Positions 3,778 through 48,211 of a stretch of DNA of 64,000 bases are shown in pieces (the first letter of the stretch is position 1; each line of letters starts with the position of its first letter). A model generated the notes under the pieces. The model had not been told where the DNA came from and searched no databases. It saw only the letters and a list, made by a program, of their open reading frames with translations. The position numbers and the translations under genes were made by a program. Origin of the DNA: Deltaproteobacteria bacterium (GTDB lineage: Bacteria; Desulfobacterota; Desulfobacteria; Desulfobacterales; Desulfatirhabdiaceae); the NCBI GenBank assembly GCA_037129415.1, contig JBAXVB010000001.1:1047-65046 (forward strand), in the 5' to 3' direction.

Positions 3778-6700
3778 ATGACATATAACTCGAACACACT
3801 GAATTCTGTAACCGGCACTTGCAGTAATCCACAATGTAATGCCTCATACGATATAAATGAAGCCCAGGAACAGGTTATACAGAGGGGGCTGGCTCTGGCT
3901 TACTGTGATGATGTCGTATTCCAGGTCATCGAATGCCGTTATCCAGGATGCCGAGGCAAGGTCGTATTTCGCAGCGATACTGCCAGCCCTGCCCTCGACA
4001 TGCGGGGGCTGCTGCTCGTCCCGAATCCAATCATGCCTTGCAATGCGAGAGAGCAGGCGCAAATTTTGAGAAGCTACTATAATTGGCATGATTATCTGAA
4101 GTTCCAAATTGTTACCGCATGGGATGAATCCGCAGTTAGTATCAGCGAATTCATTGACGATAATTATGTTGCCCCATCAAAACTTTCATTCCCGCCCGAA
4201 AACGAATATATTGATGATATCGATGACTTCACGTACGAACCATTTACATTTACGGATTCGTCTATAGATTTTCACGAAGAATTCATATCTGAACCAGAAA
4301 TTCCAGATAACTCTCGGCGTATGTTAACAGAGTATATTTATGCATCTTTGTTTATGTCAGAAGAGAATTTTTATACTTCTTTGGACAAAGAAGAAACCAA
4401 TAGTACAATCATACTGCGACGACTGCTTCCAAACACACTGAAAAACAATAACTTGCTGACCTGTTTGGCACCAAGTAAAATCGACGAAATCTTCTCTCCA
4501 GATTATTCCAGTTCCAATTTATATGGCTGCGGCACCTGGAATTTAACGATAAAACCGAAGCTATGGAAATCCATTTTAGAAGAAGCCGAAGGAAAATCTT
4601 TCGAGGATGCCGTTGTTGAAAAACTCGTATCCATTGGGATCGAGCCTCCAAATCTGTTGGAAATTGCCAGTTCGGTTGGTCAGCAGCTATTGTCTAAATC
4701 ATCACACTCAAGAGATCAACTTTGGGATATAGTATTTGAAAAAGGTTTTGATGAGAACCTTGGGGAATTTTTTAAGAAGGTGTTTCGGTCAATATGTTAT
4801 CCAATATGCACGGAATTTGCCCTTGCAAATCAACGGAAAGAACTGTTGAATTGGGCAAATGAAGTGGAACAGGGCAAAGCCCTATTTGTCGATGCCCCAA
4901 TGGGGCTTGGGAAAACCCATGCAATCGTTGAAGTCCTGGCTCCTGATCCAAATCTGTCTGCGGTCATTTTCATGCCAACCAACATGTTGTGTCAGGAAAT
5001 AATAGAAAACCTTAAATCCAGGATTTGTTTACAATATAAGGACCCTACCCGGAACCTATGGCACGATAGGGAGCAAGTAATAGACAATAACGGCAACCCC
5101 GTATTTGAGGATGATGGCTCATACCTGTACAGATTTAAAAGGACCTTTCTCAATAAAGAAGTTTATTATGCCGATGGAATAAATCCAAAGGAATGCCCCT
5201 ATTTCGATGAATTCGTGAAGCGGTATAAATGTGGTCTGTTCACCAAAATTGATGTGTGCGGTGATTGTGAAAAGTTTTTGTTTGAAAAGACCGATAAAAT
5301 AGCCTGTCGGTTCAGAAGCCACCATTTGCTTGCACCCCTCTCTCGGATTGTGGTTACAACTCACCAGCAATACCGCAATTTCTCTAAACAGTCCTCAATT
5401 TGCAAATGGTTCAAAAATGGTGAAAAAGAAAAAGGTATCGATAGAAGCTTTTTCATTGTGGACGAAGATATTGTCTTTTCGCAGTGCTATGAGCCTACTT
5501 GCCTGGATAAAGAAGGACTAAAGAATTTTATTGCGACCATAACCGATTTCATGGCAAACCCTGAAAATCTTAAAGGCAATCCAGTTCCTGAAACTGCTAT
5601 CAATAACATAGACAGAATACTCGCACAATTTGAAAAATGTGACAAATCATCAGTGGTACCGGCAATCGATCCTGAATTTAAATTACCCAGTCAAATAAAA
5701 AATGTCTGGGAAGAAGTATTCAATACACAAAATGTGGAAGTGCCAGAAATACTTGCTTCACCAGAACCGATAGGAAACTATTTAGAAATTATTGAAAAAG
5801 CAATATGCAAAGGCTTTGCAGTTCAAAACTACGAAGCAAAATTTAACAATTCGGGCAAGATTGAAACCAGGCAGGTCAAAAAAGCATTTCTTCCAAATCC
5901 GAATACCTATGACCTTAAAGAATTGCCTCCGCATGTGTTCTTTGACGGTACGATGCTCAATGAAAAGTTTTTGGCGAACAAACTAAAAAATGTTGAATTC
6001 AAGAAAATCAAAATAACGATCAAACCGATTTGGAATATAAACGTTCGGCAAAACATATGGACTGACTTGCCGAAATACAAGATTTCCCATGACAGAAAAA
6101 ATGTTGAACAACTTATAAGCGATTTGTTTAGGCAGTTCGGAAACAAAGCTAAATATTTTATTGTGACAAAAAAGGGCATAAGAGAAGAGTATTTGGATGA
6201 GTTTCTGAAGTCAAAGTTTTACAATATAAATTATGTGATTAACCATTATGGCAATTTGCGTGGAGAAAACAGAGCCGAGGATTGTGACATAGGCATCATG
6301 CTCGGAAGCTATGCTCCATCAGATGCGGTTGAAATAACTATGGCTCTGGACTTTATTCAGGACAAACTAACGCCAAACAGAATCATTACCTCAAAAAATA
6401 ATTTATGGACTTTCAGCAATACCAATTTCCGTCGCGTATATAGCGATGACTTTGCGATAGTTGGCGAAATGGCTGATGCATACAGGCATTCAGAGCATCG
6501 CCAGGCATTAGCCAGGACACGATACCTCTTTCATGATGTAGATTTTTTCATCATCTCAAAGGACTTGGTTTCTGACTATGACCCATTTTTGCCCGAGCCG
6601 ATAGATTGCCAATATCGGACTGATTTGTTCGATGGACGATCCCAAAGACCAGAAGCCAAAGAAAAACTCGAAGAGGTTGTGGGAAAGGTCTTTGAGTGGC

Positions 6701-6879
6701 TGAAAACGCACGATACAGTCACGGCAGCGATGATTTTCGAAAAATACGCGATAAGAAGACAGACAGTCGGCAATAAGCTGAAAGAAATGTATGCCAATGG
6801 GCTATTAGAGTTGGAGAAAGGGAAAAAGACAACTTATAGGCTACCCGCTACGGATGGAAATGGACAGGATAGCCTATAG
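3778..6879 (+). CDS. Zn-ribbon + SF2 helicase of XPD/DinG (Rad3) type with Cys cluster + C-terminal winged helix
   Basis: 1033 aa. The N-terminus carries CxxC...CxxC (CSNPQC...CRYPGC). Walker A is 'FVDAPMGLGKTH' and motif Ia is 'FMPTNML'. Five Cys (CPYF, KCG, CGDC, ACRF) lie between Ia and II. 'IVVTTHQQY' is followed by 'FIVDEDI' (motif II). 'HRQALARTRY' is motif VI-like. The C-terminus 'RRQTVGNKLKEMYANGLLELEKGKKTTYRL' is wHTH-like. Confidence 0.65.
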   Translation: MTYNSNTLNSVTGTCSNPQCNASYDINEAQEQVIQRGLALAYCDDVVFQVIECRYPGCRGKVVFRSDTASPALDMRGLLLVPNPIMPCNAREQAQILRSYYNWHDYLKFQIVTAWDESAVSISEFIDDNYVAPSKLSFPPENEYIDDIDDFTYEPFTFTDSSIDFHEEFISEPEIPDNSRRMLTEYIYASLFMSEENFYTSLDKEETNSTIILRRLLPNTLKNNNLLTCLAPSKIDEIFSPDYSSSNLYGCGTWNLTIKPKLWKSILEEAEGKSFEDAVVEKLVSIGIEPPNLLEIASSVGQQLLSKSSHSRDQLWDIVFEKGFDENLGEFFKKVFRSICYPICTEFALANQRKELLNWANEVEQGKALFVDAPMGLGKTHAIVEVLAPDPNLSAVIFMPTNMLCQEIIENLKSRICLQYKDPTRNLWHDREQVIDNNGNPVFEDDGSYLYRFKRTFLNKEVYYADGINPKECPYFDEFVKRYKCGLFTKIDVCGDCEKFLFEKTDKIACRFRSHHLLAPLSRIVVTTHQQYRNFSKQSSICKWFKNGEKEKGIDRSFFIVDEDIVFSQCYEPTCLDKEGLKNFIATITDFMANPENLKGNPVPETAINNIDRILAQFEKCDKSSVVPAIDPEFKLPSQIKNVWEEVFNTQNVEVPEILASPEPIGNYLEIIEKAICKGFAVQNYEAKFNNSGKIETRQVKKAFLPNPNTYDLKELPPHVFFDGTMLNEKFLANKLKNVEFKKIKITIKPIWNINVRQNIWTDLPKYKISHDRKNVEQLISDLFRQFGNKAKYFIVTKKGIREEYLDEFLKSKFYNINYVINHYGNLRGENRAEDCDIGIMLGSYAPSDAVEITMALDFIQDKLTPNRIITSKNNLWTFSNTNFRRVYSDDFAIVGEMADAYRHSEHRQALARTRYLFHDVDFFIISKDLVSDYDPFLPEPIDCQYRTDLFDGRSQRPEAKEKLEEVVGKVFEWLKTHDTVTAAMIFEKYAIRRQTVGNKLKEMYANGLLELEKGKKTTYRLPATDGNGQDSL

Positions 6880-7102
6880 GGTGACTATATAGGGTATGGT
6901 GTCCATATTTATTTTTGGGCATCGGCAGAAATTGGAGATTACACTTTGAAAGCCATTTTATGTGGCATCAAACACAGTATCTGTCGCATGAAATAGCAGT
7001 AAAAGAGCTGTAATGACAACAAAAGACATCAAAAAGCCTGACCAGTAAAATGGTTGGACTTTTCTTTTTTCTGGTTGCTACAACTTCATACCGCACAGCA
7101 TT

Positions 7103-7231
7103 TCATCGAGATTTTTCCAGGACGAACTTGGCGACCTCTTTGTAAAACTCTTTGGAATGGTGTTTGTGTTTGATGTGAGCCAATTCGTGAACGATGATCT
7201 GGTTCCTGGTTGATACTTCGAATTCTTGGAC
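7103..7231 (-). pseudogene. remnant of a DUF45/YgjP-type (M48-like) metallohydrolase
   Basis: A stop-to-stop fragment with no start codon translates as VQEFEVSTRNQIIVHELAHIKHKHHSKEFYKEVAKFVLEKSR*. It contains the family's HELxH..H.HSxxF signature only. Confidence 0.5.
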
Positions 7232-7245
7232 TTAATCTGGATTTT

Positions 7246-7443
7246 TTATTTCGTTAGTTCCTTCAGTATCTTATGAATCCATGTAAAAACAGAGTCATCA
7301 GCAGCTTCAAATTCTGCTTCTAATTCTGGGTCCAGGATTATCATGCAGCTATCACAACAAACCCTGTCAACGTTGTTTTCTTCATCACGATCATAATTTA
7401 TTGCACCAGTAATTGTTTGCCTACATATATCGCACCTATCCAT
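7246..7443 (-). CDS. small Cys-rich acidic protein (zinc-ribbon-like)
   Basis: 65 aa with CDIC...CCDSC. It is the last gene of the minus-strand array and is preceded by repeat copy R1. Confidence 0.5.
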   Translation of the reverse strand: MDRCDICRQTITGAINYDRDEENNVDRVCCDSCMIILDPELEAEFEAADDSVFTWIHKILKELTK

Positions 7444-7531
7444 TCTGTTTCTCCTTTCATTTTGGTTGAAAGTTATAAATTGAATATTGTAAAAATAAAT
7501 TAATTTGATCTGCTGAGATTGAATGCCGCTT

Positions 7532-7628
7532 GAATTGACATTTGAGCAATGAACAAAAGTCGTATATGGCTTCTGCCTGATACGGTCTTTAAATGCTTCT
7601 CTACAAGGTTTTTTTCATCGGAATCTAA
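7532..7628. repeat. intergenic repeat element copy R1 (~100 bp)
   Basis: gaattgacatttgagcaatgaacaaaag...ggtctttaaatgcttctctacaaggtttttttcatcggaatctaa aligns along its length with R2 (9420-9525) and R3 (12895-12995). Confidence 0.85.
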
Positions 7629-9370
7629 CCCGCTGTCGCCGATGGTTCAGCAAGGGATATCTTTTCAATAGCTCCTGTTCGCGCTTGCCGTAGAACTCGT
7701 TCACCAATACCTCTTGCTCTTGAAAATATGGCAGTCATTCGGTCGAAGTTGATGTCAAGGCGTTTTAACTCCTTGCTGACTCCATGTATTCCCATCGTTA
7801 GTGTTTGTTCCATATTTGGAATTTGATTCAATGTTGCTGTTATTCTCAAAAATGGAGCTTTTGTTGTCAAGATAATATCTTCCAAATTAGCAAGGGCAGC
7901 TAGGTTATTAGCTAATTGTGTATGAGCTTCTTTGGAGGACGGCTGAAGTCCACTAACCCAATATTCAAGGCTTATCTCAAATCGTTTAAGCGTATTATCG
8001 CATTCCAAATTTGCTTCGGAAACTTTTTTGGCATAGTCAAATAGAAATTCAGCAAAAGTTCGACAAAATAATTGAAGCTTGCGAGCATCTGCAAGGGGAT
8101 TAGCGTAAATCTCCATTAATTTAGCGTTTTCCTCTGAACGCCTTGTACTGATCAATTCGATCCATTTAGTAAGTTGTTGTATAATTTCAGATAGTTTGGC
8201 AAAACCCTTATCCACTTCTACCTTGTGATCCAGCCACCCGAGTTCAGCGAGTTCTTTTGGACCATCTTCTACTTCTTTTTGGTCGCATAGTTGTTTTGTT
8301 AATGCGGGTTCCGTAAAATCTTTATTTACAAAAAGCATTGTCTTATCGATAGCTTCTGCCCGTACTTGCCGTAGAACTTGTTCACCAATACATCTTACTC
8401 TTGAATACATGACTAACGATTGATCGAAGTTGATAGCAAAGTGTCTTAGCGCTTTGCATGTTTCCAGTGTTGCGAGCGTTAGCTTTCGTTCTATTATTGG
8501 CATTTGTTCTAACGTCTCAATCAACCTTAAATTCGTAGCTTTTGCTGTCAATAAAGAATTTTCAACAACAGCAAGGGCAGCTAAGTTATTAGCTAACTTT
8601 GTACGTTGATCTTCGGAGGACGGCACTTGCCCATAAATATATTCAAGGCTTGGTCCTAATCGTTTTATCATTTTATCGTGCTCGAAATTTAATTCGGAAA
8701 CCTTTTTGGCATAGTCAGAATGAGATTCAGCAAAAGCTCGACAAAGCATCTGAGCCTTGCGAGCATCTACAGGATGATTAGCGTGAATCTCCAATAATTT
8801 AGCGTTTAGCTCTGAACATCTTGTACTGATCGAAATAGTCGATTCACTATGTTGTTTCATAATTTCAGTCAGTTTTGCTTGCCCATTATCAATTTCTACC
8901 TTGTGATCCCAAAACCCAAATTCAGTGTGTTCTTTTGTATCATCAGAAATTTCTTTTGGGTCACCTATATGTTTTGTTAATGCTGATTCCGTAAAATCTT
9001 TAATTGGGCTGCCTAACGGGATCTGATTTTTATAATCTGGTGTTGGTTCTGGTTCTGGTTCTTTATTTATCAATGTGCCGCAATGTGAACAGTATTTTGA
9101 TTCATCAGGAATCTGTTTTCCACAATTTGAACAGTACAATGTAGAATTTATTCCTTCCCTTTTATCAAGCTTTTTCCTCTCAGATGCTTCATCAGCGGCT
9201 TTAAACGCTTCATCTGCTTTTTGTTTTTCGTCAACCTCTCCTGAATTCTTATTTATGGAAAACATAATATCGCAATTCTTACATTTTACATAAGCTCCAG
9301 CTTCAGGAATTTTTTTGTCATCAACGTTGTCGGCAGTATTGCAATTCGGACAAAGAATTCTCATCTTCAT
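7625..9370 (-). CDS. MJ0042-type zinc-ribbon protein with second zinc ribbon and an internally duplicated ~220-aa all-alpha domain
   Basis: 581 aa. The N-terminus is 'MRILCPNCNTADNVDDKKIPEAGAYVKCKNCDIMFSI' and the second ribbon is 'CSNCGKQIPDESKYCSHCG'. Residues ~124-349 and ~350-569 are clear paralogous repeats (KDFTE(S/P)ALTK...LANNLAALA...INFD...). No TM segment is seen. Confidence 0.7.
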   Translation of the reverse strand: MKMRILCPNCNTADNVDDKKIPEAGAYVKCKNCDIMFSINKNSGEVDEKQKADEAFKAADEASERKKLDKREGINSTLYCSNCGKQIPDESKYCSHCGTLINKEPEPEPTPDYKNQIPLGSPIKDFTESALTKHIGDPKEISDDTKEHTEFGFWDHKVEIDNGQAKLTEIMKQHSESTISISTRCSELNAKLLEIHANHPVDARKAQMLCRAFAESHSDYAKKVSELNFEHDKMIKRLGPSLEYIYGQVPSSEDQRTKLANNLAALAVVENSLLTAKATNLRLIETLEQMPIIERKLTLATLETCKALRHFAINFDQSLVMYSRVRCIGEQVLRQVRAEAIDKTMLFVNKDFTEPALTKQLCDQKEVEDGPKELAELGWLDHKVEVDKGFAKLSEIIQQLTKWIELISTRRSEENAKLMEIYANPLADARKLQLFCRTFAEFLFDYAKKVSEANLECDNTLKRFEISLEYWVSGLQPSSKEAHTQLANNLAALANLEDIILTTKAPFLRITATLNQIPNMEQTLTMGIHGVSKELKRLDINFDRMTAIFSRARGIGERVLRQARTGAIEKISLAEPSATAG

Positions 9371-9419
9371 TTCCTTTGTAATTCGAGTAATGATCGAATA
9401 GATTAACAGAACACCGTTT

Positions 9420-9525
9420 GAATTGACATTTGGGCAATGAACAAAAAATCGTATGTTTTATATGGGTTCAGGCTGATATGGTCTTAAAACGTTTCTCTGC
9501 AAGGCTTCTGTTCATCAGAATCTAA
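9420..9525. repeat. intergenic repeat element copy R2
   Basis: gaattgacatttgggcaatgaacaaaaaatcg...gctgatatggtcttaaaacgtttctctgcaaggcttctgttcatcagaatctaa. The terminal imperfect inverted repeat is ATGAACA/TGTTCAT. Confidence 0.85.
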
Positions 9526-9573
9526 TCTGTTTCATAATCTCTAAGCAATTCTGATGCTTTTTCGAAAGGAAAA

Positions 9574-10524
9574 CTATTTCATTAAATTGCACTCATTTAA
9601 AGTATTTATTGCCTTTAAAAGCAAAATTGGCTTTGCTTTTTTATAATATTCTGAAGCTTGACTCAAATGATTTATGCCTGTCATAGCTCCCTTATCTCTA
9701 TCATTCCACATTTGTCTTAATGGGTTTTCAAGTAATTCTACTGAATCTTCAATAGCTTCATAATATAATTTTGAATTCCAGTTCAAATCATCATAATACC
9801 ATTTATCCCTTATGTTTTTATAAATGTTATAGACAAGTTCAAGTTTGGCTTTGTTTGGTGAATTGAGAAGATTTAAGTTATATTTTGCATCACGTAAGGT
9901 TTCGTCAAATACAAGAATTGTAACTCCTGTTTCCAGATAGGATTCAATTTTTTTCAAAGATTTCCATGCGGCAACATATTCCGCACTATATTTCTGAGAA
10001 ATAAAAAAGTGATATATGCCAAACAATAAACCGATTGATATGGTAACTGCTAACGCCGTATATTTTAAAGTCTTTTTGTTTTTATCAAGAATTTCCTCTG
10101 CCTTTTGTTTTCCATCAGCGGTATTTAATGATTCCTCAGCCTTCTTCAATGCTTCTTTTAGCCTCAATACTTCCTCAGCCTTTGATTCTTCATGAATCTT
10201 AGGTTCTTCTTCAGCCTTGAACTCTTCTACTGTTTTTGGTTCTTCCAGAATCTTTTTCTTTTTCAGATTCTCTTCATAAATTCTGTAATAAATCCCGCAA
10301 TATGGGCATTCTAAATCATTTGAATTCCTGTTACGGGAGCATTTAGGACATTTTTCTTCAGTCCTTAATTCATTGTGAATTATCGGCTTTTCCTCCGCTT
10401 CCAGAGTATCCTTTTTTATGAAAAATTTGGTTTCGCATTTGCATTTTATATTAGCTCCTGCATCAGGGATTTTTGAATCATCAACTTGATAAACTTTTTT
10501 ACAATCAGGACATTGGATTTTCAT
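9574..10524 (-). CDS. MJ0042-type double zinc-ribbon, single-pass membrane protein
   Basis: 316 aa. It has 'MKIQCPDCKKVYQVDDSKIPDAGANIKCKC', then 'CPKCSRNRNSNDLECPYCGIYYRIYEE', then an E/K-rich coiled coil, then a TM 'ALAVTISIGLLFGIYHFFI' and a C-terminal domain. Confidence 0.7.
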   Translation of the reverse strand: MKIQCPDCKKVYQVDDSKIPDAGANIKCKCETKFFIKKDTLEAEEKPIIHNELRTEEKCPKCSRNRNSNDLECPYCGIYYRIYEENLKKKKILEEPKTVEEFKAEEEPKIHEESKAEEVLRLKEALKKAEESLNTADGKQKAEEILDKNKKTLKYTALAVTISIGLLFGIYHFFISQKYSAEYVAAWKSLKKIESYLETGVTILVFDETLRDAKYNLNLLNSPNKAKLELVYNIYKNIRDKWYYDDLNWNSKLYYEAIEDSVELLENPLRQMWNDRDKGAMTGINHLSQASEYYKKAKPILLLKAINTLNECNLMK

Positions 10525-10677
10525 TTTCTTCCTTTGGAATCCGATTGAAATAGGAATTCAAATATTTGTTTACTGAATTATGTAGGTACAAGATCAATTG
10601 GTTTTGCTGGGATTGAACGCCGTTTGTAATGATGTTCTTGTCTGACTTGTTTGAGTTCATTTTCTTGATCTATGCAA

Positions 10678-11379
10678 TCACATTGAAATTCTGACTTTCT
10701 TGCGGGCATTGCCTACTCCCCATTCCTCAATCAACAAGATGCCATTTGACGAAGATTTTGCATCAAAAACAACATAAGTTTTAAGGGTGCTTCCAGGTTC
10801 AAATATTGTTGAACTATTATCATCATATCCAATCTGGTATTTTGCATAAACACTCATTGATGATTGCGGATACTGAGTACCATTTGATAAAATCGTCATC
10901 CTGCCATAGTATCTGGGTTTGTTTGAAATATTCTTCAATTGAAGCTCAACAACAATGAATGTGCCATCTGACGGCTTCTGAGGATTTGACTCGGAACCCA
11001 AGGAAGAAAATCTTCTTACATTAGTAATCTTCCATTCAAAACCATCATGATTGAATGTCTGATATTGACTAAGAATCTCTTCTTCAGCTTCTTTTATTCG
11101 CCTTTGATCTTCTTCTGCTGCATTTTTCTCTTCTGCAACTTTTGCTCTTTTCTCTTCATTCGCTTGAATTCGAGAATCTGATTCCTCCCGCATTGAATTT
11201 ATATACCCTGGTGATTCACTGAAGGAGTTGATTCTCTCTTTAAATTCACACTTTGCATCAGGAGGAGGGGAGTCAGTAAATATTGTTTTCCCGCTACTGG
11301 TTACGCATTTGTAATATTCAGCATCAGAAACAGTTGATAGGGATATAATAACGCAAAGTGTTAAAACTATTCGTTTCAT
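10678..11379 (-). CDS. secreted protein, DUF4124-like N-terminus + DUF4352-like beta-sandwich C-terminus
   Basis: 233 aa. The signal peptide is MKRIVLTLCVIISLSTVSDA. 'YYKCVTSSGKTIFTDSPPP' is a DUF4124-type motif. The C-terminus has 'FIVVELQLKNISNKP...' (DUF4352-like). Confidence 0.6.
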   Translation of the reverse strand: MKRIVLTLCVIISLSTVSDAEYYKCVTSSGKTIFTDSPPPDAKCEFKERINSFSESPGYINSMREESDSRIQANEEKRAKVAEEKNAAEEDQRRIKEAEEEILSQYQTFNHDGFEWKITNVRRFSSLGSESNPQKPSDGTFIVVELQLKNISNKPRYYGRMTILSNGTQYPQSSMSVYAKYQIGYDDNSSTIFEPGSTLKTYVVFDAKSSSNGILLIEEWGVGNARKKVRISM

Positions 11380-11577
11380 TATGGCTCCCGTATTATTGGT
11401 TTGGAAAATGAGTTCTGCTGGGATTGAATTGTTAGCGGAATGCTTTTGTAATTGTCGTTTGATTAATTCTATTCATTGTTATCAACTAAAACTACTCCGA
11501 CATAAATGATATTCCGTCCAGATTACGGTGATCATGTTTAACTCACGCTCCTGATGCTCTGGTGCAACTCCTGCCCT

Positions 11578-12729
11578 TCATTTCGATTGTTTATTTGTTA
11601 GTGCATTTATTGCTTTTAAATCATAAGCATTTTTCTCATCATCGGTCATTGGTGAAATTGTATTTTCGTCTCGATTATCCTGCTCTTTGGTACTTTTGAC
11701 AGTGTCAGTTTGCGGTTGATTGATTTCCCGAATCTCTTTTACGCTATTCAAATTGACGTTAAATTTACCGTCATTATTGGATATATGAATAACGTTATCC
11801 TGTTTCTGATAAGAAGTAGCAAACAATATCTTACCGCTGTTTAATACTATTTCATATTTATGAGGAAGATCGTTTGCCGTATTTTTCGGAATAGGATTTG
11901 GTTCAGTTTCATCTTGAATCGTATTTTGTGAATTATTATTGAGTGTAGATTTTTCATTATATTTTGAAAACAGTACAGTATTATCTGCTTTCAGAACATT
12001 GAAATCCGTTTTGATCTGGCATTCTATAATTCCTGATCTGGTATTAAATGTGTTGTAGTAACTGGGAATATCCATATAAATTGTTTGAGATGATTTATGA
12101 AGTTTTTTAATAAGTTTAGTAATTTGACTTCCCTTGATAGGTTTTGTTAGTGAACCGTTGTTCTCGTAAAGCGAACAATAACATGTAACTGACCATCCTT
12201 CCCAATGGATATTAGAATACAATATTGAAAAACTGAATGATTTATCCTTTTCGCTGGTTGTTGATAACTGAATCTGATCAACCCTTTTCAAATCACCTTT
12301 TTTCTGCATAATGCCAGAAAAATATTCTTCATTCCTATTACCAATGTGCTGCAAACCAGACACACTGAATTCGTAATTTGATGGTTCATTGCAAATTTTC
12401 AATCGTTTTGAAAAAGAATGCCTGTTGTTACTCTTGTAAGACGGCTCGATAATATTGATGTGTATTCTTTCTCGCCATAATTCATTATCTGAAAAACCGT
12501 GGAGATATATGATAATAGCAACATTTTCAAACGTAAATTGGGAATTATTGATAATTTCGCCATTCAGATAACAATCGCTATATTTTTGAATTGGCGGATA
12601 ATATGATAAATAACTGAAAGAGAAAATATCGTCAATTTTTGTGGTGAATGCTACGGCAGGGCTGCAAAAAAATATACAAAAGAAGGAAACAATAATTGAA
12701 AAAAGAACACTGATAAATATGGTTCTCAT
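11578..12729 (-). CDS. exported hypothetical protein (shares leader and signal peptide with 13859..15262)
   Basis: 383 aa. The N-terminus 'MRTIFISVLFSIIVSFFCIFFCSPAVA' is a signal peptide. No recognisable domain. Confidence 0.6.
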   Translation of the reverse strand: MRTIFISVLFSIIVSFFCIFFCSPAVAFTTKIDDIFSFSYLSYYPPIQKYSDCYLNGEIINNSQFTFENVAIIIYLHGFSDNELWRERIHINIIEPSYKSNNRHSFSKRLKICNEPSNYEFSVSGLQHIGNRNEEYFSGIMQKKGDLKRVDQIQLSTTSEKDKSFSFSILYSNIHWEGWSVTCYCSLYENNGSLTKPIKGSQITKLIKKLHKSSQTIYMDIPSYYNTFNTRSGIIECQIKTDFNVLKADNTVLFSKYNEKSTLNNNSQNTIQDETEPNPIPKNTANDLPHKYEIVLNSGKILFATSYQKQDNVIHISNNDGKFNVNLNSVKEIREINQPQTDTVKSTKEQDNRDENTISPMTDDEKNAYDLKAINALTNKQSK

Positions 12730-12894
12730 AAGAAATCCCTATTTGTTCACTTCATAAAGGACAAAATTCTGTATCGGATGATCAGCGTTTTGAGTTTAAA
12801 AATAATTTCTTTTCAAAAAGGACGGTTATTGTTGTCAATACAAAAATCAAAATTTCTTCAATTTTATCTGACTGGATCGATATAATGAATCCTG

Positions 12895-12995
12895 GAATTT
12901 GAACAATGAACAAAAAAGGTGACGGTTTTATATGGTTTCTGGCTGATATGGTCTTAAAACGCTTTTCTGCGAGGCTTCTTTTCATCAGAAGCTAA
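12895..12995. repeat. intergenic repeat element copy R3
   Basis: ggaatttgaacaatgaacaaaaaaggtgacggttttatatggtttctggctgatatggtcttaaaacgcttttctgcgaggcttcttttcatcagaagctaa. Confidence 0.85.
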
Positions 12996-13005
12996 TTTAT
13001 TGTGT

Positions 13006-13818
13006 CTATTTAATCGTATTTAAGACTTTTGCCGCCATCTCTTTGGCTTTTTCATCGTTATACGCATCAATTTTTTTCATGATAAAAAATAACTCAATTA
13101 AAGCTATAAAGCACGGAATGAAAGTCCAAATAAACAGGGCATAAATAACACCTAACCCAACCTTCCTCATGTAAAAATGATGTGCGCCGAACCCTCCAAG
13201 AAATAAATTAAGCAAAAACCCAGTGGTACGATTCAATCGAACTTTGTTCATCTCAGATTGAAACACCATCTTTTGAGAATCATTCATATCCCTCATCAAA
13301 ATGAGTTCAGTGTAATCCCTTTGTTTCGCTTTTTCACTTGCTTTTTCACTTGCTTTTTTTCGAATCTCATTATTCTCTTTAATATCCCTATTCGATTTTT
13401 CAATTGCTGCTTCCCATTTCGGCTTAAAATCCCCATACGCTTTTTCAATTGCTGGTTTCCATTTCAGCTTAAAATCCCTGTACACTTTTTCAATTGCTGC
13501 TTCCCATTTCATCTTAAAATCCCTATACTCTTTTTCATTTGTTGCTTCCCAATTAAAAGTTTCCTGAAATTTTGGTTCTTTTTCTTTTTTTGTATCAAGA
13601 TTATCTTTATATTTTTCGTAAATAATTCCACATTTTGAGCATTCTAAATCATTTGTTTTCCGATTATGTGAACACTTAGGACAAATCCCTGAACTCTTAT
13701 TTATTGAAAACAAAATATTGCAATTCGTACATTTTACAAAAATCCCAGCTTCAGGAATTTTAGAATCATCAAATTGATAAACTTTTTTGCATTCAGGATT
13801 CGGACATTGGGTTTTCAT
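13006..13818 (-). CDS. MJ0042-type double zinc-ribbon protein with C-terminal TM2 domain
   Basis: 270 aa. It has 'MKTQCPNPECKKVYQFDDSKIPEAGIFVKCTNCNILFSI' and 'CPKCSHNRKTNDLECSKCGIIYEKYKD'. W(E/K)(A/P)AIEK.Y.DFK repeats follow. TM2 signature: 'LFLGGFGAHHFYMRKVGLGVIYALFIW'. Confidence 0.75.
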   Translation of the reverse strand: MKTQCPNPECKKVYQFDDSKIPEAGIFVKCTNCNILFSINKSSGICPKCSHNRKTNDLECSKCGIIYEKYKDNLDTKKEKEPKFQETFNWEATNEKEYRDFKMKWEAAIEKVYRDFKLKWKPAIEKAYGDFKPKWEAAIEKSNRDIKENNEIRKKASEKASEKAKQRDYTELILMRDMNDSQKMVFQSEMNKVRLNRTTGFLLNLFLGGFGAHHFYMRKVGLGVIYALFIWTFIPCFIALIELFFIMKKIDAYNDEKAKEMAAKVLNTIK

Positions 13819-13858
13819 CTTTCATTTCCTTGGAAATCCGATTGAAAGAAATTCAAAA

Positions 13859-15262
13859 TTAAGCGGATTGGTCTTTGTTACAAAACCTGCAAATTTTAGC
13901 TTTTGCCTTTATTGTCTCAGCGCAATAAGGACATTTCTTTGTATCAGATAAATCAGGTGTCTCTATCTTTTGACTGGTGTTCTGCTCGTTTTTTATACGA
14001 TTTGAGATATTAAGTATAACTCCGATAAGCAGAATAATCCCTGAAGCAATGAGAAAATTTTGTTTCTCATTCATTAATCCAATGTTGTGGATTCGATTAC
14101 CGCTTAGAGAAGGTACGCTGGTACCCATAGAAAGGGATACAATCAAGGCAATTATACCTACTGCAATTAATATTCGATCTATTGTCCATCTACTGAAGGA
14201 ATAACTGCCATTCGGCTGCGCATTAAAAGGCTTTGGTTCCTCATCTTGTTTCGCTTTTTCTCTTGCTTTATTTCGCATCTCGTTATTCTCTTTAAAATCC
14301 CTATAAGCTTTTTCAATTGCTGGTTTCCATTTCTCCTTAAAATCCCTATACACTTTTTCACTTGCTGCTTCCCATAAATTTTTATATACGGGGAACATAA
14401 TACCGCAATTCTTGCATTTTACATAAGCTCCTCCACTTGGGATTATTTTTTCATCAATGTCAAAAATATTTTTGCAATTTGGACAAGAATTATCAGGATA
14501 AAAACTCTTTTGATTTGTTGAAGCCATTTTAAATTTAAGTGCAACAATCTTCAAATAGGATTTTATTTTTATGATTGTTATTAAATAATACTTTCGACAA
14601 ATGAAAAATACGATTGCAAGTCCTATTACGATTGCAAGTCCTATTATGATTGTAATGAGCTTTTTCACTATAAGCTCATTCTGCTTTTTCTTAATTTCTT
14701 CCTGTTTTTTATTTTTTTCTATCTCATTCTGTAATTTTAAATTTTCTTCTTTTTCTCTCCTAAGCTTTTCATCATACGTTTTCTGTATCCTTAATGTTTC
14801 TTCCTGCTTTTTAATACTATCTTTTTCTACCTCATTCTGTAATCTTATCGTTTCTTGTCGTTTTTTAAACCATTCCTTTTCATCATACATCTTCTGCAAT
14901 CTTAAAGTTTCTACCTTCTTTATAATTCTTTCCTCTTCCTCTTTTTGCAATCTTAAAGTTTCTTCATCCTGCTTTTTAATCTTTTCATCTTCCTCTTTTT
15001 TTAGTCTTAACTTTTTTTCTTGTTTTTCTTGGTTTTCTTTATTTTTTTTGGGTTCATGAGCATTCTTGACAGGTTCAGATTTTTCGATTGTATTATCTGG
15101 GATTGATTTCTGATTATTATTTTTTTGTTTTTCTATTTGGCGGTATTCAAATTCAGAAATAATATTCCCGTCAGCATTGTAATATGTTGTTTCTGCAACT
15201 GCAAAAGATACGCAAAGGAAGGAAACAATAATTGAAAGAACACTGATAAATATGGTTCTCAT
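13859..15262 (-). CDS. multi-pass membrane protein: signal/TM + coiled-coil repeats + internal MJ0042-type zinc ribbon + C-terminal zinc ribbon
   Basis: 467 aa. The N-terminus is 'MRTIFISVLSIIVSFLCVSFAVA', followed by ETLRLQK-type repeats and TM helices. The internal ribbon is 'CPNCKNIFDIDEKIIPSGGAYVKCKNCGIMFPV', then 'KVYRDFKEKWKPAIEKAYRDFK' as in 13006..13818. The C-terminal ribbon is 'CPYCAETIKAKAKICRFC'. Confidence 0.7.
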   Translation of the reverse strand: MRTIFISVLSIIVSFLCVSFAVAETTYYNADGNIISEFEYRQIEKQKNNNQKSIPDNTIEKSEPVKNAHEPKKNKENQEKQEKKLRLKKEEDEKIKKQDEETLRLQKEEEERIIKKVETLRLQKMYDEKEWFKKRQETIRLQNEVEKDSIKKQEETLRIQKTYDEKLRREKEENLKLQNEIEKNKKQEEIKKKQNELIVKKLITIIIGLAIVIGLAIVFFICRKYYLITIIKIKSYLKIVALKFKMASTNQKSFYPDNSCPNCKNIFDIDEKIIPSGGAYVKCKNCGIMFPVYKNLWEAASEKVYRDFKEKWKPAIEKAYRDFKENNEMRNKAREKAKQDEEPKPFNAQPNGSYSFSRWTIDRILIAVGIIALIVSLSMGTSVPSLSGNRIHNIGLMNEKQNFLIASGIILLIGVILNISNRIKNEQNTSQKIETPDLSDTKKCPYCAETIKAKAKICRFCNKDQSA

Positions 15263-15341
15263 AAGAAATCCCTATTTGTTCACTTCATGAAGGACAAAAT
15301 TCTTTTATCGGATGAATCGGCATTTTGAATCAATAAGAATT

Positions 15342-15380
15342 AATGAATCCTGGAATTTGAGCAACGAGCAAAAAAGTGAG
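15342..15380. repeat. partial copy (left ~40 bp) of the intergenic repeat element
   Basis: aatgaatcctggaatttgagcaacgagcaaaaaagtgag matches the left flank and start of R3. A still shorter trace lies at 16536-16555. Confidence 0.6.
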
Positions 15381-15415
15381 GGAATTAAGACAAAACTATA
15401 TTGTAACACATAACG

Positions 15416-16504
15416 CTATATCTGTTCAGGAGGTAAAACTTTCCTCAGGGCAATGAGGTTGTCAATTTCTGAAATTAAATTTACCCAGTCATCATCTTCG
15501 TTCACTACAAATAGTTTTACGCCATGGCTTTGAGCCAAATTTGCTTTGCGTAAATCCCGTTCAACAGTTTTTTGAAATACTTCTTCTCCACCAAAAAAAT
15601 CAACTGACATATAATGCTGTGATCCATGATATTCTATAGCAATATTCCAATGTGGGAGCCATATATCAAAGTGCTGTTTGCCCAACCAGATTGGCTGACC
15701 ATGCTGAATTACTTTGGTTTGATGAAATGTTGATTCAATGAGCCTGAACAACTTTGTTTCAGTTATCCAGCCTTCACCAATTCTGGGAAGTCCAAGAATA
15801 TCCCGGGTTAAGTTTTCTGCTTCTGTCGAAATAGTTCTGATTTTAGTTAGATTATCGGATACTTCTTCCTGAAAAGAAATGACTTCAAATGATAGTCTGG
15901 TTTCATGTACTGGAGCTCCTCCAAATAGACGATGAGGAAAGCGTCTAGATTTTTGCATTTGTTTTCCAAAGATTGATATCCATCCTCCCCGCGACTTAGT
16001 AATTTTTGCGAAATGTTTCATAATACAATCTTTGTATATAGCTTGATTTTCAATTAAGAGTCGATTTCTTCTGCTCCTAGCTATAAGAACAATATCAATT
16101 GGATATGGTTCGAGTCCAATGTGACTTTGAAGATTTAATCGGAGATCGGAATTATGGACTATTTCAAAAGGAGATTTAGGTTCGGTTTTTTCTAAATAAA
16201 TGTCAAATTTGTTCATTCCAAGTAGACAGTCGTAAGCCCAAGATATGCAATAGTTTGACAAATACGTTTCGTGCGAATAAATCTCTGAGATATGCATAAG
16301 AAATTCATACAAATTTTCGTAGCCAATTTTATTCATATTTGATAATATTTTGTATAAATAGAGAAAAACGTAACTGAAATTACCCTCTACATCGAGATAA
16401 TCCCCTTGATTGAGTGATTCAACAAGAGATTTATAGAACGCCCGTTGAGCTTTATTCATATTATTATGACAGGGAGGACAGCCGACAAAAGGTGGCACGT
16501 TCAT
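15416..16504 (-). CDS. TerB-N-like N-terminus fused to a Vsr/DUF559-like (restriction-endonuclease fold) C-terminus
   Basis: 362 aa. The N-terminus is 'NKAQRAFYKSLVESLNQGDYLDVEGNFSYVFLYLYKIL'. The C-terminus is 'IGEGWITETKLFRLIE...HFDIWLPHWNIAIEYHGSQHY...FFGGEEVFQKTVERDLRK...GVKLFVV' (D...IEY.G.QH...RD..K layout). Confidence 0.5.
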   Translation of the reverse strand: MNVPPFVGCPPCHNNMNKAQRAFYKSLVESLNQGDYLDVEGNFSYVFLYLYKILSNMNKIGYENLYEFLMHISEIYSHETYLSNYCISWAYDCLLGMNKFDIYLEKTEPKSPFEIVHNSDLRLNLQSHIGLEPYPIDIVLIARSRRNRLLIENQAIYKDCIMKHFAKITKSRGGWISIFGKQMQKSRRFPHRLFGGAPVHETRLSFEVISFQEEVSDNLTKIRTISTEAENLTRDILGLPRIGEGWITETKLFRLIESTFHQTKVIQHGQPIWLGKQHFDIWLPHWNIAIEYHGSQHYMSVDFFGGEEVFQKTVERDLRKANLAQSHGVKLFVVNEDDDWVNLISEIDNLIALRKVLPPEQI

Positions 16505-17104
16505 GGGAACTCCTAAAAAGCTGAACTTATCGCATATAATGAATCCTGTAATTCCACAAATAAAAACTGATTATAACGGATTTGGGAGATTTTAACACGT
16601 TATTTGGAAAAATAATTTGAAATATATTATTCAAGTACTATTATTTTTGCTATAAATACAACGGGTTATTATTATCATGTAAACATTGCGCAATAAATCG
16701 GTAATACGTATAACCTATTGAAAATACAATCAACCCCCGAATCCATTATAATCAGAATAAAAAATAATGATGTTTTCCCCTAGTGCTGGTGATCTTCAGG
16801 ATGCCTGCCCGCCAGATTCATATTTTGGAGTTTTTAATCGGCTTCAAATTCTAACCAAAATGGGACATTGAAATTCTTGAAAACAGACAGAATGAAATGC
16901 TGAACAAATTAACAAAAGCCTCATAGTCCTTAAGCCTCGATCTGACCAGGAGGTGTGAATAGAGCAAATGCATAGGAACATTTTCTTCGATGCTAAGATA
17001 TGATGTTGGACTTGCCGCTGATCAACAACCAGAGCAAGACGGTACTCTGTCACTAATATATTTGCCACATGTCACGCATTTAATGAATGCCATAACTCTC
17101 TCGA

Positions 17105-17503
17105 CTATGAATTTTCATAGTCTTGCTTAGTCCCGTCCGTGAAAATTACTGACTTGGTAACAAATTCAACTTTCATGTCCTTCAAAGGAAGGTTATTTAA
17201 CTTGACCTGATCTTGGATGAAGTAGTTGTATTCAATGCCTCCCTCCCAGTTATACGTGCCATTGGCTCGGATTGGGTCCTGCACTTTCATGGAAATTGTA
17301 AAGACCAATTCGTCAAAGAGATCTTTGACCAACAAATTTCCAGCAAAGGCTCGTATGTCCTTCTTGTAGGAGTTGGCGAAGCGAAACTTGAAATCTATTC
17401 GATGCTTTACATCTGTTCCTTGAAACGATGGTTCATGATGGGTCTTTTTCAAGCATTTAGCCTTGATTAACTCTTTTCGCTTCTCTCTTGGAAATGTATC
17501 CAC
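17105..17503 (-). CDS. hypothetical protein (beta-rich)
   Basis: 132-aa ORF lying 15 bp downstream of 17519..18070 on the same strand. No recognisable motif. Confidence 0.5.
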   Translation of the reverse strand: MDTFPREKRKELIKAKCLKKTHHEPSFQGTDVKHRIDFKFRFANSYKKDIRAFAGNLLVKDLFDELVFTISMKVQDPIRANGTYNWEGGIEYNYFIQDQVKLNNLPLKDMKVEFVTKSVIFTDGTKQDYENS

Positions 17504-17518
17504 CTGTGTTGAGCTGTC

Positions 17519-18040
17519 CTAGGGCAACAAAGGATATGCTTGAGGGGCGACCTTAGGAAATTCATCTTTTATGTTTTGATCAATAGTTGAATCACTCGGA
17601 AATACTAGTCCGTATTTTGCTACGAGTTGCTGCTGTCTGAGAGTTGCGAGTGTGTGCTCGCAGGTTGCTATAGTTGTGAGCCATGTAGCATGGATGAGTC
17701 CACCGACATATTTGGAAGCTTCAGCTTTCGCTTTCTTGATGAGCGTTGATTGGGATTGGATATCGCTTCCTAATAGTGTTGCACGATCATGGTCTGGGGT
17801 TGCTGCTTGAGCAACAATGCTAAATGGAACTCCGAACTCAAGCGAACAAATGCGTTGCTCCAAGAGTGCACGAGTTATCTGAATGATTTGTAGCCGGACG
17901 GTGATGAGTGACTTGACGAGTCCGCCTGTGTACTGAGCGTCTTCTACCTTTGCAATTTCAATTTCTTGGTTAATGCGAGTTAATTCAGTTCTGAGTGCAG
18001 AAATTGTTTGAGAGTCACTTGCAGTAGTGGTTGGTTCCAT
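17519..18040 (-). CDS. hypothetical protein with two internal Y.GGL...helical repeats
   Basis: The ORF track gives 17519..18070. The ATG at 18040 is preceded by GGGAGG. 'AQYTGGLVKSLITVRLQIIQITRALLEQR' and 'ASKYVGGLIHATWLTTIATCEHTLATLRQQQ' are repeats. Confidence 0.5.
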   Translation of the reverse strand: MEPTTTASDSQTISALRTELTRINQEIEIAKVEDAQYTGGLVKSLITVRLQIIQITRALLEQRICSLEFGVPFSIVAQAATPDHDRATLLGSDIQSQSTLIKKAKAEASKYVGGLIHATWLTTIATCEHTLATLRQQQLVAKYGLVFPSDSTIDQNIKDEFPKVAPQAYPLLP

Positions 18041-18371
18041 GTGTCCTCCCTTGTTCTTGGTATAGTTCATTCTTGCCCAACGAATAAGGATATAGTGTGA
18101 GAGCGAAGTGAACCACGATCTTATCCGTTGGTTGAACGATTCCGATAACTTTGGAAAATCTTTTTTGGACAGTGTTGTCCAAGATTTATAAACACCCTAC
18201 CATCATGGTCGAGCCATAAAGTCAGCCCGTATTCATAGCGATAGGGTCCCTGTATATGAGACAGGGTGGTAATCGCATACGGCGTTTTATACCCCCATTT
18301 CCATCGTCCTTATCGTCAGTACAACAACTAAATAGAAAGGAGATTCACGATGAACCCCGCATTCACGACCT

Positions 18372-18749
18372 CTACCGGTTCATATATTTATCTTCCATGT
18401 AGCGGAGCAGATCCCATGGATTAACTCCACGGTTACCTCTCTTCATATTACATTCTGGGTGCGCTATTCTCACGTTGGATGATTCATTACCTCCTCCATA
18501 GCTAAATGGAATTATGTGGTCTATGTGCCATGGGGGCGATACTTGTTCTGAACAAAGAGAGCATTTACCATCTTGTTTTTCGTATATTTCATATATTACC
18601 TTCATCAACCAAGGACGGCGAACGTTGGGGGCAATTTCTCGCAAAATAGTGCTACATTCAGTCACTTGTGTCCAGAAATCTCTCCAAGAAGCATTTTCGA
18701 CAGCGGTTGCATTCGCCAATATATCGTCTATGATTTTTGTCATTATCAC
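18372..18749 (-). CDS. HNH endonuclease
   Basis: 125 aa. 'CSLCSEQVSPPWHIDHIIPFSYGGGNESSNVRIAHPECNMKRGN' is the HNH/His-Me finger signature. Confidence 0.85.
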   Translation of the reverse strand: MIMTKIIDDILANATAVENASWRDFWTQVTECSTILREIAPNVRRPWLMKVIYEIYEKQDGKCSLCSEQVSPPWHIDHIIPFSYGGGNESSNVRIAHPECNMKRGNRGVNPWDLLRYMEDKYMNR

Positions 18750-19054
18750 GCCGCCAAAGCCTTTCGAGCATTTCCTGCCCTTGTTCGGTTGTTCCTCAGT
18801 TTAGTTAAAAGCTCTTCCGCTCTTATTTGTCCACCAATGTTTTGTAATGTGGTAACGAGTTTTTCTACTATATCAAGAACTTTGTTCAAATCATCTATGA
18901 TTTCATCCAGATCTTGCATATTCTTATGTTTATATCTGCCCATACGAGATACTAAACGTTCCAATCTTTCCTCGAGTGAAGGTTCACGGGATTCGATTTC
19001 CTCAAGTTGTTGTTCAGGTTTTAACCTAATGATATTTTTGAACCACGAAAGCAT
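18746..19054 (-). CDS. coiled-coil hypothetical protein, translationally coupled to the HNH gene
   Basis: 102 aa. Its stop overlaps the HNH start by 4 nt (ATGA). Confidence 0.55.
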   Translation of the reverse strand: MLSWFKNIIRLKPEQQLEEIESREPSLEERLERLVSRMGRYKHKNMQDLDEIIDDLNKVLDIVEKLVTTLQNIGGQIRAEELLTKLRNNRTRAGNARKALAA

Positions 19055-19087
19055 ATAAAAATCTCCTTTATCTTGTTATGTTTAATG

Positions 19088-19252
19088 CTAACTACAGTAC
19101 CCATTACTCGGGGCTGGTAAATTACAGCCTGCAAATTCAACCATTGCACAATACACGCATCTGAATTCACAAGTACCCGCATATGCAACAGCAGACAGAA
19201 ATAAAATTAATCCGATAATAATCGCACGGTACTTTGTTGAATCAATTTTCAT
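19088..19252 (-). CDS. small secreted Cys-rich peptide (54 aa, below ORF-track cutoff)
   Basis: GGGGGGGAG RBS lies 5 nt upstream of the ATG. Translation: MKIDSTKYRAIIIGLILFLSAVAYA|GTCEFRCVYCAMVEFAGCNLPAPSNGYCS*. This is a signal peptide plus a 29-aa mature part with 5 Cys. Confidence 0.5.
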   Translation of the reverse strand: MKIDSTKYRAIIIGLILFLSAVAYAGTCEFRCVYCAMVEFAGCNLPAPSNGYCS

Positions 19253-24014: not shown

Positions 24015-24476
24015 TCACTGATCCAGGATTTGGTTAACTTCATCCCTTTGTTTGAGAGCCAGTTCCTTCATTTCAAGTTCCTTCATTTCAAGTTCATTCA
24101 TTTCAAGTTCATTCGCATACTGACGCAGAGCTTCGGGGAGTGACATCGGGACGAGAGAGTAAGAGCCGGTTTCTTGGATAGAAGGTAAAACTTCATCAGT
24201 CACCCAATCTTGAAATTTCCCCGCTTCCGGAAGTTCTGAACGCATAATTAATCTATAAACATCTGACTCAGGGATGATATTTAGCTCCCTTCCTGTAGCA
24301 GGGTAATTGAATTTATTGATATTTCTGCAATGTAGATTGATCGCATTATTAGGTTTTTCATACCCAAGAGCTTTGGCAACGTCATTGGCTACAAACCAAA
24401 GAGTGCCTTCAATATCAGTGATTCTTATTTCACCAAACACTTCATGTTCAAAATTGCTTAAAACTAAATTTTTCAA
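24015..24476 (-). CDS. BRO-N domain protein (prophage antirepressor type)
   Basis: 153 aa. 'FGEIRITDIEGTLWFVANDVAKALGY...IIPESDVYRLIMRSELPEAGKFQDWVTDEVLPSIQETGSY'. The C-terminus has a NELEMKELEMKEL repeat. Confidence 0.85.
   Translation of the reverse strand: MKNLVLSNFEHEVFGEIRITDIEGTLWFVANDVAKALGYEKPNNAINLHCRNINKFNYPATGRELNIIPESDVYRLIMRSELPEAGKFQDWVTDEVLPSIQETGSYSLVPMSLPEALRQYANELEMNELEMKELEMKELALKQRDEVNQILDQ

Positions 24477-47017: not shown

Positions 47018-48211
<1,194 letters not shown>

Follow-up and report, generated by a model that had tools for sequence, protein, structure and literature searches.

The window, i.e. the whole 64-kb stretch of DNA analysed here, comes from an uncultured Desulfobacterales-type metagenome-assembled genome (MAG), labelled "Deltaproteobacteria bacterium" at NCBI. 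The RpoB encoded here falls in a cluster at ≥90% identity that has a Desulfatirhabdiaceae entry among its members. The right half of the window is core chromosome, with tRNAs, tuf and rpoBC, and its AT-rich left portion is a complete integrated element of 31 kb. Part of this element is occupied by eight genes on the minus strand, termed g1–g8, four of which encode proteins that share an MJ0042-type zinc finger joined to different bodies. The array is a lineage-specific, rapidly shuffled mobile-element cargo.

The array and its genes

A sequence-only reading of the window had described an array of seven genes, g1–g7, extending over positions 7246–15262. The seven minus-strand open reading frames (ORFs) are all present at the coordinates given. 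The right end at 15262 does not hold, as a further gene, g8 (15416–16504), has a similar GC content at third codon positions (GC3) and shares an upstream repeat. g8 belongs to the same block as g1–g7. The eight genes are listed below.

g1, 7246–7443, minus strand: acidic, Cys-rich protein of 65 aa (C4, C7, C29, C30, C33) with no transmembrane (TM) segment
g2, 7625–9370, minus strand: soluble protein of 581 aa with an MJ0042 finger (aa 3–36), a Zn_Ribbon_1 (aa 79–99) and two tandem long four-helix bundles, rep1 (8318–9016, minus strand) and rep2 (7628–8317, minus strand)
g3, 9574–10524, minus strand: MJ0042 finger, CPKC ribbon, charged linker, TM segment (aa 157–175) and an extracytoplasmic domain of ∼140 aa
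g4, 10678–11379, minus strand: signal peptide, DUF4124, charged linker and DUF4352 (phrog_806, E = 2e-10)
g5, 11578–12729, minus strand: secreted, beta-rich protein of 383 aa without an assigned family
g6, 13006–13818, minus strand: MJ0042 finger, CPKC ribbon, 3.5 copies of a 15-aa repeat and TM2 domain (phrog_10680, E = 1.7e-20)
g7, 13859–15262, minus strand: N-terminal part with a signal peptide as in g5, an 18-aa-repeat coiled coil and a TM segment; remainder with an internal MJ0042 finger (aa 259–290), two 15-aa repeats, two TM segments and a C-terminal ribbon
g8, 15416–16504, minus strand: protein of 362 aa, weakly SngA-like at the N-terminus and nuclease-like at the C-terminus, the latter of a kind common in phages; GC3 0.287

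The four fingers recognised by the sequence-only reading all exceed curated cut-offs. With Zn_ribbon_4 (PF13717, cut-off 30.3 bits) the scores are 39.3 bits for g2, 45.7 for g3, 39.2 for g6 and 31.5 for g7, and with TIGR02098 they range from 24.8 to 32.6 bits versus a cut-off of 20.9. The finger is N-terminal in g2, g3 and g6 and internal in g7. Each consists of two Cys pairs ∼20 residues apart, at positions 7/10/30/33 in g2, 5/8/28/30 in g3 (with CxC as its second pair), 5/10/30/33 in g6 and 260/263/283/286 in g7. g3 and g6 also have in common the second ribbon that had been described (CPKC..N..NDLEC..CGI.Y..Y), and g2 has a different one, the Zn_Ribbon_1. Hydropathy prediction places every zinc ribbon on the cytoplasmic side.

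Profile hidden Markov model (HMM) scores bear out the earlier assignments of DUF4124 (27.2 bits versus 22) and DUF4352 (28.0 versus 25.9) in g4, which by eye has a hydrophobic N-terminal leader, and of TM2 in g6 (PF05154, aa 196–244, 43.0 bits versus a cut-off of 27.9). Of the two TM2 helices, hydropathy at a threshold of 1.6 finds the second alone; the other, which is Gly-rich, was located by eye at about aa 198–217. g7 as a whole has a leader and three TM segments by hydropathy, and its aa 363–464 match phrog_8032 (E = 5e-24). g8 matches PADLOC SngA (E = 1.7e-6) as well as PHROG nuclease and homing-endonuclease families, with tblastn matches in 181 phage records, and the repeat upstream of it (16534–16583) is common to g5 and g7.

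The remaining proteins gave little. g1 has no family match (Pfam, NCBIfam, PHROG) and no detectable relatives. A homology search with the C-terminal domain of g3 returned no homologue, a weak negative since the protein itself was also not returned. g5 matches PADLOC Cas4b only at E = 0.0076, with no stretch passing alone, and an AlphaFold2 (AF2) model from a three-sequence alignment is unusable (pLDDT 40). PDB sequence searches of g4, g7 and g8 found nothing. As had been stated, no enzyme domain is recognised in g1–g7 (Pfam, NCBIfam, PADLOC). A Shine–Dalgarno-like sequence precedes each gene, and all eight ORFs are intact.

Cassette duplication and the cargo slot

Growth of the array by serial duplication and shuffling, proposed in the sequence-only reading, is confirmed by coding and intergenic repeats within the array, to which a chimeric gene in another MAG adds independent evidence. 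Pairwise BLASTP links the four finger proteins to each other (E 1e-8 to 2e-26). Within g2 there is an internal duplication of ∼680 nt, or ∼226 aa (7660–8260 versus 8341–8938, 71–77% nucleotide identity). g6 and g7 have a common 45-nt/15-aa repeat at 82–88% nucleotide identity. The intergenic repeats form three families. The main repeats are as follows.

13320–13551 (g6), minus strand: 45-nt tandem repeats encoding (K/E)xYRDFKxKWxxAIE, with a related pair at 14233–14375 (g7)
12702–12770 (g5), minus strand: 69 nt made up of 41 nt of 5′ untranslated region (UTR) and the first nine codons, 99% identical to 15235–15303 (g7)
7540–7558 (g1), 9428–9446 (g2), 12897–12915 (g5) and 15355–15373 (g7), minus strand: 19-nt upstream motif TTTTGTTCATTGCTCAAAT
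12925–13001, 7559–7635 and 9455–9531, minus strand: 77-nt intergenic repeat with a hairpin

The identical start of the g5 and g7 signal peptides had been noticed before; the identity extends from the nine codons into the 5′ UTR. The intergenic repeats are not a chance finding either, as the 19-nt core has four copies versus 0.16 expected. TTTTGTTCATTGCTCAAAT occurs in the window only at these four sites, all on the minus strand and 58–168 nt upstream of g1, g2, g5 and g7. A scan for sigma-70 promoters and terminators showed no enrichment over shuffled sequences.

The 77-nt repeat sits between the preceding stop codon and the 19-nt motif and has a conserved hairpin, GCTTCTGATGAAAAGAAGC (minus strand). 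The repeat may act as a terminator or as regulatory RNA. A 67-aa ORF within the repeat was rejected as a gene, since by eye the ORF is not kept in the other two copies.

As an upstream element, a 5′ UTR and an N-terminal head are shared, the unit of duplication was a cassette, made up of the promoter-like motif, a 5′ UTR and either a finger head or a signal peptide, that was later joined to different bodies. The block arose in a narrow lineage by cassette duplication, and the heads then recombined with different 3′ bodies. The chimeric gene is found in L011, a Deltaproteobacteria MAG from Lac Pavin, where one ORF combines a g3-type finger with a g2-type linker and second ribbon. The L011 and g3 fingers have 89% amino acid identity and a ratio of nonsynonymous to synonymous substitution rates (dN/dS) of 0.03, in the sole cross-genome finger comparison; the finger is under strong constraint, and the bodies, with dN/dS of 0.3–0.84, evolve fast. 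The array itself occurs in a single population. The island is present a second time in L003, at 99.9% identity, so that a selection analysis on L003 gave no signal.

The array lies in a part of the element that varies between relatives:

∼7071–19100: variable cargo slot; the backbone alignment with L013 and L014 stops at ∼7070 and resumes at ∼19094–19250

L013 and L014 are sister elements from other metagenomes. Their backbones are 97% identical to that of the window (97–98% for the helicase gene), and the alignment breaks just past the helicase gene and resumes just before RadC. Because the two share the backbone yet carry different genes in between, this part of the window is a swappable cargo slot. 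In the window it holds g1–g8 together with ORFs of 132 aa and 183 aa and an HNH ORF, all on the minus strand. The alternative cargos (L013:5852–13893 and L014:6150–11014) are unrelated to the array and consist mostly of ORFans; among their genes are those of an 839-aa protein, a Peptidase_C39_2-like protein and one T5orf172/PDC-S57-like protein. The suggestion that the block is not housekeeping is upheld by this replacement of the whole block in both sisters, and a housekeeping role is unlikely.

The composition of the array is also distinct, as had been seen from its AT-richness. Its GC content is 34%, versus 40–43% in the element backbone and 48% in the core. GC3 is 0.27–0.30 in g1–g8, 0.41–0.47 in the backbone and 0.49 in rpoB. 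g1–g8 are therefore a compositionally uniform AT-rich cargo block in the variable slot of a tRNA-Glu tyrosine-integrase element. Variable cargo hotspots with defence, anti-defence or moron genes are known from integrative elements and from prophages. The slot resembles them in having alternative, unrelated AT-rich gene sets at one position of a conserved backbone. It differs in that g1–g7 match no catalogued defence protein and in that virion or conjugation genes are not recognisable in its carrier. Whatever the array does, a cargo hotspot has thereby been defined for a family of Desulfobacterales integrative elements and could be mined for accessory genes.

Relatives elsewhere and possible function

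The finger head was sought by sequence pattern in ∼186,000 species genomes, where two loci came up, and in 241 million metagenome records, where there were 63. Nearly every locus has one finger gene per contig, and the finger is joined to a variety of bodies. One finger, 61% identical to that of g3, is followed by an Mrr_cat nuclease and a ParA-like ATPase (L015:539–1906). Others are fused to two TM segments, DUF4041 and T5orf172 (L016:1119–2882), to a ParA/MinD ATPase (L045:1681–2628), or to DUF2628 with a region that by eye is pilin-like (L024). The fingers in L015, L016 and L045 are of the array's subtype. Some heads have no body at all and are 87-aa double ribbons. The only pair of array components found elsewhere is in L016, where a g4-like signal-peptide/DUF4124 fragment lies 2 kb from the finger gene. 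Judged by such fusions, the finger is a generic, portable and promiscuous head.

g5 has a single diverged relative, in L010 (66–72% identity, dN/dS 0.43 over 337 codons). This homologue (L010:9857–10900) forms an islet of 36% GC in a contig of 50% GC. Its called start (10001) is apparently too far downstream, as the stretch resembling g5 starts at 9857 and takes in the leader peptide.

The duplicated helical domain of g2 had been regarded as novel. The duplication stands, but the domain is a member of a large family associated with TIR and nucleoside deoxyribosyltransferase (NDT) domains. A word-indexed search with full-length g2 returned only g2 itself and one relative, P0002, in which one copy of the helical unit (53% identity) is joined to an NDT-like domain. 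A three-copy profile found 264 clusters at E ≤ 1e-3 and 128 at E ≤ 1e-10 among 1.84 billion representatives; counted as clusters at 50% identity, the family has at least 264. Members are typically 340–390 aa long with the helical unit at the C-terminus, E values for relatives fall as low as 1e-67, and both g2 repeats match the family profile. Among 100 members scanned, PF05014 was found in 77, TIR_2 in 24, ThsB_TIR in seven and Pycsar TIR in four, and the PADLOC TIR "Effector" model was matched by 77. g2 has no PF05014 or TIR match (Pfam) and carries Zn_ribbon_4 and Zn_Ribbon_1 in that place; it is the sole finger-headed member among the 100. Comparison with its relatives thus presents g2 as an effector-less, finger-headed, tandem form of a domain that otherwise lies beside immune-type TIR/NDT domains.

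An AF2 model of the bundle based on the family alignment shows four helices of ∼45 residues (pLDDT 92, pTM 0.81). A PDB sequence search of the bundle found nothing. Likenesses to ClyA-type pore-forming toxins, CorA and ExbB were not significant and were not used. Genes of the bundle family have no conserved neighbours and look stand-alone. g1 was considered as a conserved partner of the helical domain and rejected, as the ORFs downstream of the relatives in L002, L078 and L079 are unrelated.

Family members P0040–P0188 consist of an N-terminal TIR or NDT-like domain and a C-terminal four-helix bundle of ∼200 aa. By this layout they are candidate single-gene immune sensor-effectors, and no PADLOC system matches the whole protein. 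The stand-alone TIR/NDT-like plus bundle family is a by-product that is useful whatever the array does.

Several known systems can be compared with the array. TIR/NDT plus bundle proteins have a C-terminal bundle as g2 does, and the analogy is to single-chain TIR-like sensors such as Swarozyc/DUF4062. They differ in that g2 has two zinc ribbons in place of TIR/NDT, tandem bundles and no near-invariant Tyr. TM2-domain ('NINE') small membrane proteins are common in phages. The C-terminal half of g6 is like them (PF05154, phage phrog_10680), and g6 adds a double zinc ribbon and a linker of 15-aa repeats.

ZitP of Caulobacter and GltJ/AgmX of Myxococcus are bitopic proteins with a ∼35-aa four-Cys finger of the MJ0042/zinc_ribbon_5 type at the cytoplasmic N-terminus, which a flexible charged linker joins to a TM segment and an extracytoplasmic part, a layout found in g3 and partly in g6 and g7. 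The finger of ZitP docks the membrane protein to its cytoplasmic partner PopZ (PMC5182065), and that of GltJ docks MglB or GltJ's own linker (PMC11135422). Unlike these proteins, the array proteins have fingers without DUF3426 or GYF, g2 is soluble, and the four paralogues are in the cargo slot of a mobile element and not a conserved chromosomal gene. A further comparison is with Mpr of Mycobacterium smegmatis, a DUF4352 protein that provides non-abortive, membrane-level phage resistance; DUF4352 proteins are also present in temperate mycobacteriophages (PMC12596739). Mpr and g4 are alike in having DUF4352 on an envelope-located protein from mobile elements. They differ, on a comparison by description only, in that Mpr is reported to have an N-terminal exonuclease region and a TM segment whereas g4 is secreted, with a cleavable leader and DUF4124.

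The likeliest reading is that the array has an accessory, conflict-related role at the cell envelope, for which the fingers would serve as common docking heads. This is given about an even chance of being correct. Such a role is suggested because the block sits in a cargo slot, because the g2 bundle is TIR/NDT-associated and nucleases are attached to the fingers most closely related to those of the array, because the TM2, 2TM-ribbon, DUF4352 and g8 modules match phage families, and because Mpr, the one characterised DUF4352 protein, gives membrane-level phage resistance (PMC12596739). A surface, exclusion or sensing function, as suggested by the sequence-only reading, draws indirect support only from the domain associations and the DUF4352 precedent. 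The finger would be portable and, like those of ZitP and GltJ, would dock proteins in the cytoplasm. It would set four outputs under the control of, or beside, one common cytoplasmic partner: the soluble tandem bundle of g2, the bitopic g3 with its periplasmic domain, the TM2 protein g6 and the polytopic coiled-coil protein g7. g4 and g5, as secreted beta-rich proteins, would act on the periplasmic side. The element would benefit, either because competing phages or elements are excluded or fended off, or through counter-defence; a single obligate complex of the array genes would not be required. A more specific version is a new type of envelope immunity or exclusion system of the mobile element, in which the finger would dock a tandem bundle sensor and the membrane outputs to one cytoplasmic hub, these outputs being TM2, the 2TM-ribbon and a bitopic protein with g4 and g5 as periplasmic partners. 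The sensor would have been borrowed from TIR/NDT-type immune proteins, and an invader sensed by the bundles would lead to a signal to membrane effectors and not to an NADase. This version is highly doubtful. A lysis cassette, with TM2 as a holin and the secreted proteins as spanins, was dropped, as no endolysin was found.

Several results count against an envelope conflict role. None of g1–g7 matched a defence model of PADLOC-DB v2. tblastn of g6 against INPHARED phages found nothing, and the viral-contig scans (IMG/VR, INPHARED) revealed no relatives of the helical domain, the fingers or g7. Foldseek of the bundle against PDB and BFVD gave generic long bundles only (E ≥ 0.07, TM ≤ 0.5). At no finger locus elsewhere did the array turn up, nor did g5, the bundle of g2, the C-terminal module of g7 or the C-terminal domain of g3. 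The L010 relative of g5 stands alone on a 176-kb contig among ordinary genes, with no tblastn match to the other proteins of the array in the 21 kb covered. Finally, the two bundles of g2 have diverged almost neutrally (dN/dS 0.84) and are without the Tyr that is nearly invariant in the family, and the chimeric ORF of L011 is truncated, stopping where the helical domain starts. These three features are compatible with relaxed constraint or decay.

This raises the question of whether the array has any joint or selected function. It may be a transient product of runaway duplication in a recombination-prone hotspot, with its genes decaying. The near-neutral g2 repeats, the dN/dS of 0.43–0.55 for other modules, the family-conserved residues lost from the g2 bundles, the truncated relative, the restriction to one population (L003 at 99.9% identity), and the orphan status of g1 and the g3 C-terminal domain can all be read in this way. 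It is nevertheless unlikely, since the eight ORFs are intact and have ribosome-binding sites, the Cys ligands are kept in all four fingers, with dN/dS of 0.03 between the g3 and L011 fingers, and the domain scores exceed curated cut-offs. The g5 pair, with dN/dS of 0.43 over 337 codons at 67% identity, shows that g5 is a real protein. The opposite view is of one coherent envelope-spanning machine, a single surface, exclusion or sensing system in which g1 and the periplasmic pair g4 and g5 would assemble with the four finger proteins, all of them being required together. The genes have the same strand, tight spacing, a common upstream motif and uniform composition, their predicted locations in the cytoplasm, membrane and periplasm are complementary, and each of the three sister elements either has the whole block or lacks it. 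This too is quite unlikely. The conserved functional seven-gene module of the sequence-only reading is not borne out, as no second array appeared in the genome and metagenome scans, nor any component pair save the L016 fragment near a finger gene, and the g5 relative and the g2-like relative each stand alone. The clustering is in any case already explained by recent-duplication paralogy without interdependence. The same reading had set a scattering of single paralogues through core regions against a module; the relatives do occur singly, but the lone copies lie in accessory, AT-rich settings and not in the core. The array is not demonstrated to be a coherent system.

Two narrower explanations have also been considered. 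g2, with two copies of a sensor or oligomerisation bundle and no effector domain, might act as a counter-defence decoy, which would co-assemble with a host TIR/NDT-bundle protein, or titrate its trigger, and so protect the element. The bundle family is overwhelmingly effector-linked, g2 alone is finger-headed among the 100 scanned and has no TIR/NDT domain, it is encoded on a mobile element, and P0002, its closest relative, is a full NDT-bundle protein. On the other side, the 64-kb window contains no host TIR/NDT-bundle gene, and only g2 would be accounted for, not the membrane and secreted paralogues; a decoy function appears highly improbable. Hardly credible is the explanation that the finger proteins are ZitP/GltJ-like adaptors for cell polarity, pili or motility that are on the island by chance. 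g3 has the ZitP layout of finger, linker, TM segment and periplasmic domain (PMC5182065), and there is a weak NCBIfam GltJ match (E = 0.08) that covers the finger only. However, the four finger proteins have no DUF3426 or GYF match at E ≤ 0.1 (Pfam), no pilus or motility genes are nearby, and the genes are of foreign composition in a swappable cargo slot.

Every recognisable domain was already known, as were cargo hotspots. What is new is the array of finger-headed paralogues, the effector-less tandem form of a TIR-partner bundle, and a TIR/NDT-bundle family unmatched by catalogued system models. If the block is functional, it would show how a mobile element can assemble an envelope system with several outputs around a single portable zinc-finger head, and it would offer a first handle on three large, uncharacterised groups, namely TM2, Gram-negative DUF4124/DUF4352 and the TIR/NDT-associated bundle. 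If it is merely a transient duplication product, it is still a clean case of cassette-level domain shuffling caught in the act.

The element and the adjoining chromosome

The mobile-island setting surmised by the sequence-only reading is confirmed, as the element can now be delimited by attachment (att) repeats, an integrase and a tRNA gene:

955–1000: left att repeat, duplicating the 3′ end of tRNA-Glu; its 46 nt recur perfectly, in direct orientation, at 31997–32042
3778–6879, plus strand: helicase-like backbone gene (1033 aa; PF00270 at threshold), left edge of the cargo slot
30768–31904, plus strand: tyrosine integrase of the element (PF00589, E = 3e-18)
31997–32071, minus strand: tRNA-Glu(ctc) (ARAGORN and Rfam), of which the 3′ 46 nt (31997–32042) are the right att repeat

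With its tyrosine integrase beside a tRNA gene and direct repeats of that gene's 3′ end on both flanks, the element is of the tRNA-targeting integrative type. The other backbone genes encode RadC, Rad52, a Cas4-like PD-(D/E)XK nuclease, DUF932, Bro-N, HIRAN and a ParB-like methylase. Capsid, terminase, portal, tail, lysis or conjugation genes were not recognised in the element (Pfam and PHROGs, with some ORFs below 120 aa left out). Its left arm has no match in the plasmid collection, and its helicase has none in the viral-contig scans.

Other repeats are found in the backbone. Upstream of the ParB-like/N6_N4 methylase gene (29136–30476) are three iteron-like direct repeats (CGCTGTACA...GTGTCCCGCTGTACA, 28506–28602), which might serve the element as parS or as an origin-like site. 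The Rad52-like gene has six tandem repeats of 24–30 nt (20557–20775), which by eye appear to encode a Gly/Asn/Ser-rich low-complexity tract. The Bro-N domain gene (24015–24476) has 15-nt tandem repeats at 24061–24114.

The core that adjoins the element (37454–42045) encodes an SNF2/SWIM helicase (37454–40282) and a protein with AAA-ATPase_like and PDDEXK_9 domains (40489–42045), possibly defence-type genes just beyond the island. Further to the right, there are two copies of tuf (47018–48211 and 61950–63143) that are 99.2% identical. The second directly follows rpsL–rpsG and is itself followed by an rpsJ-like ORF, and thus fusA is not in its usual place in the str operon.

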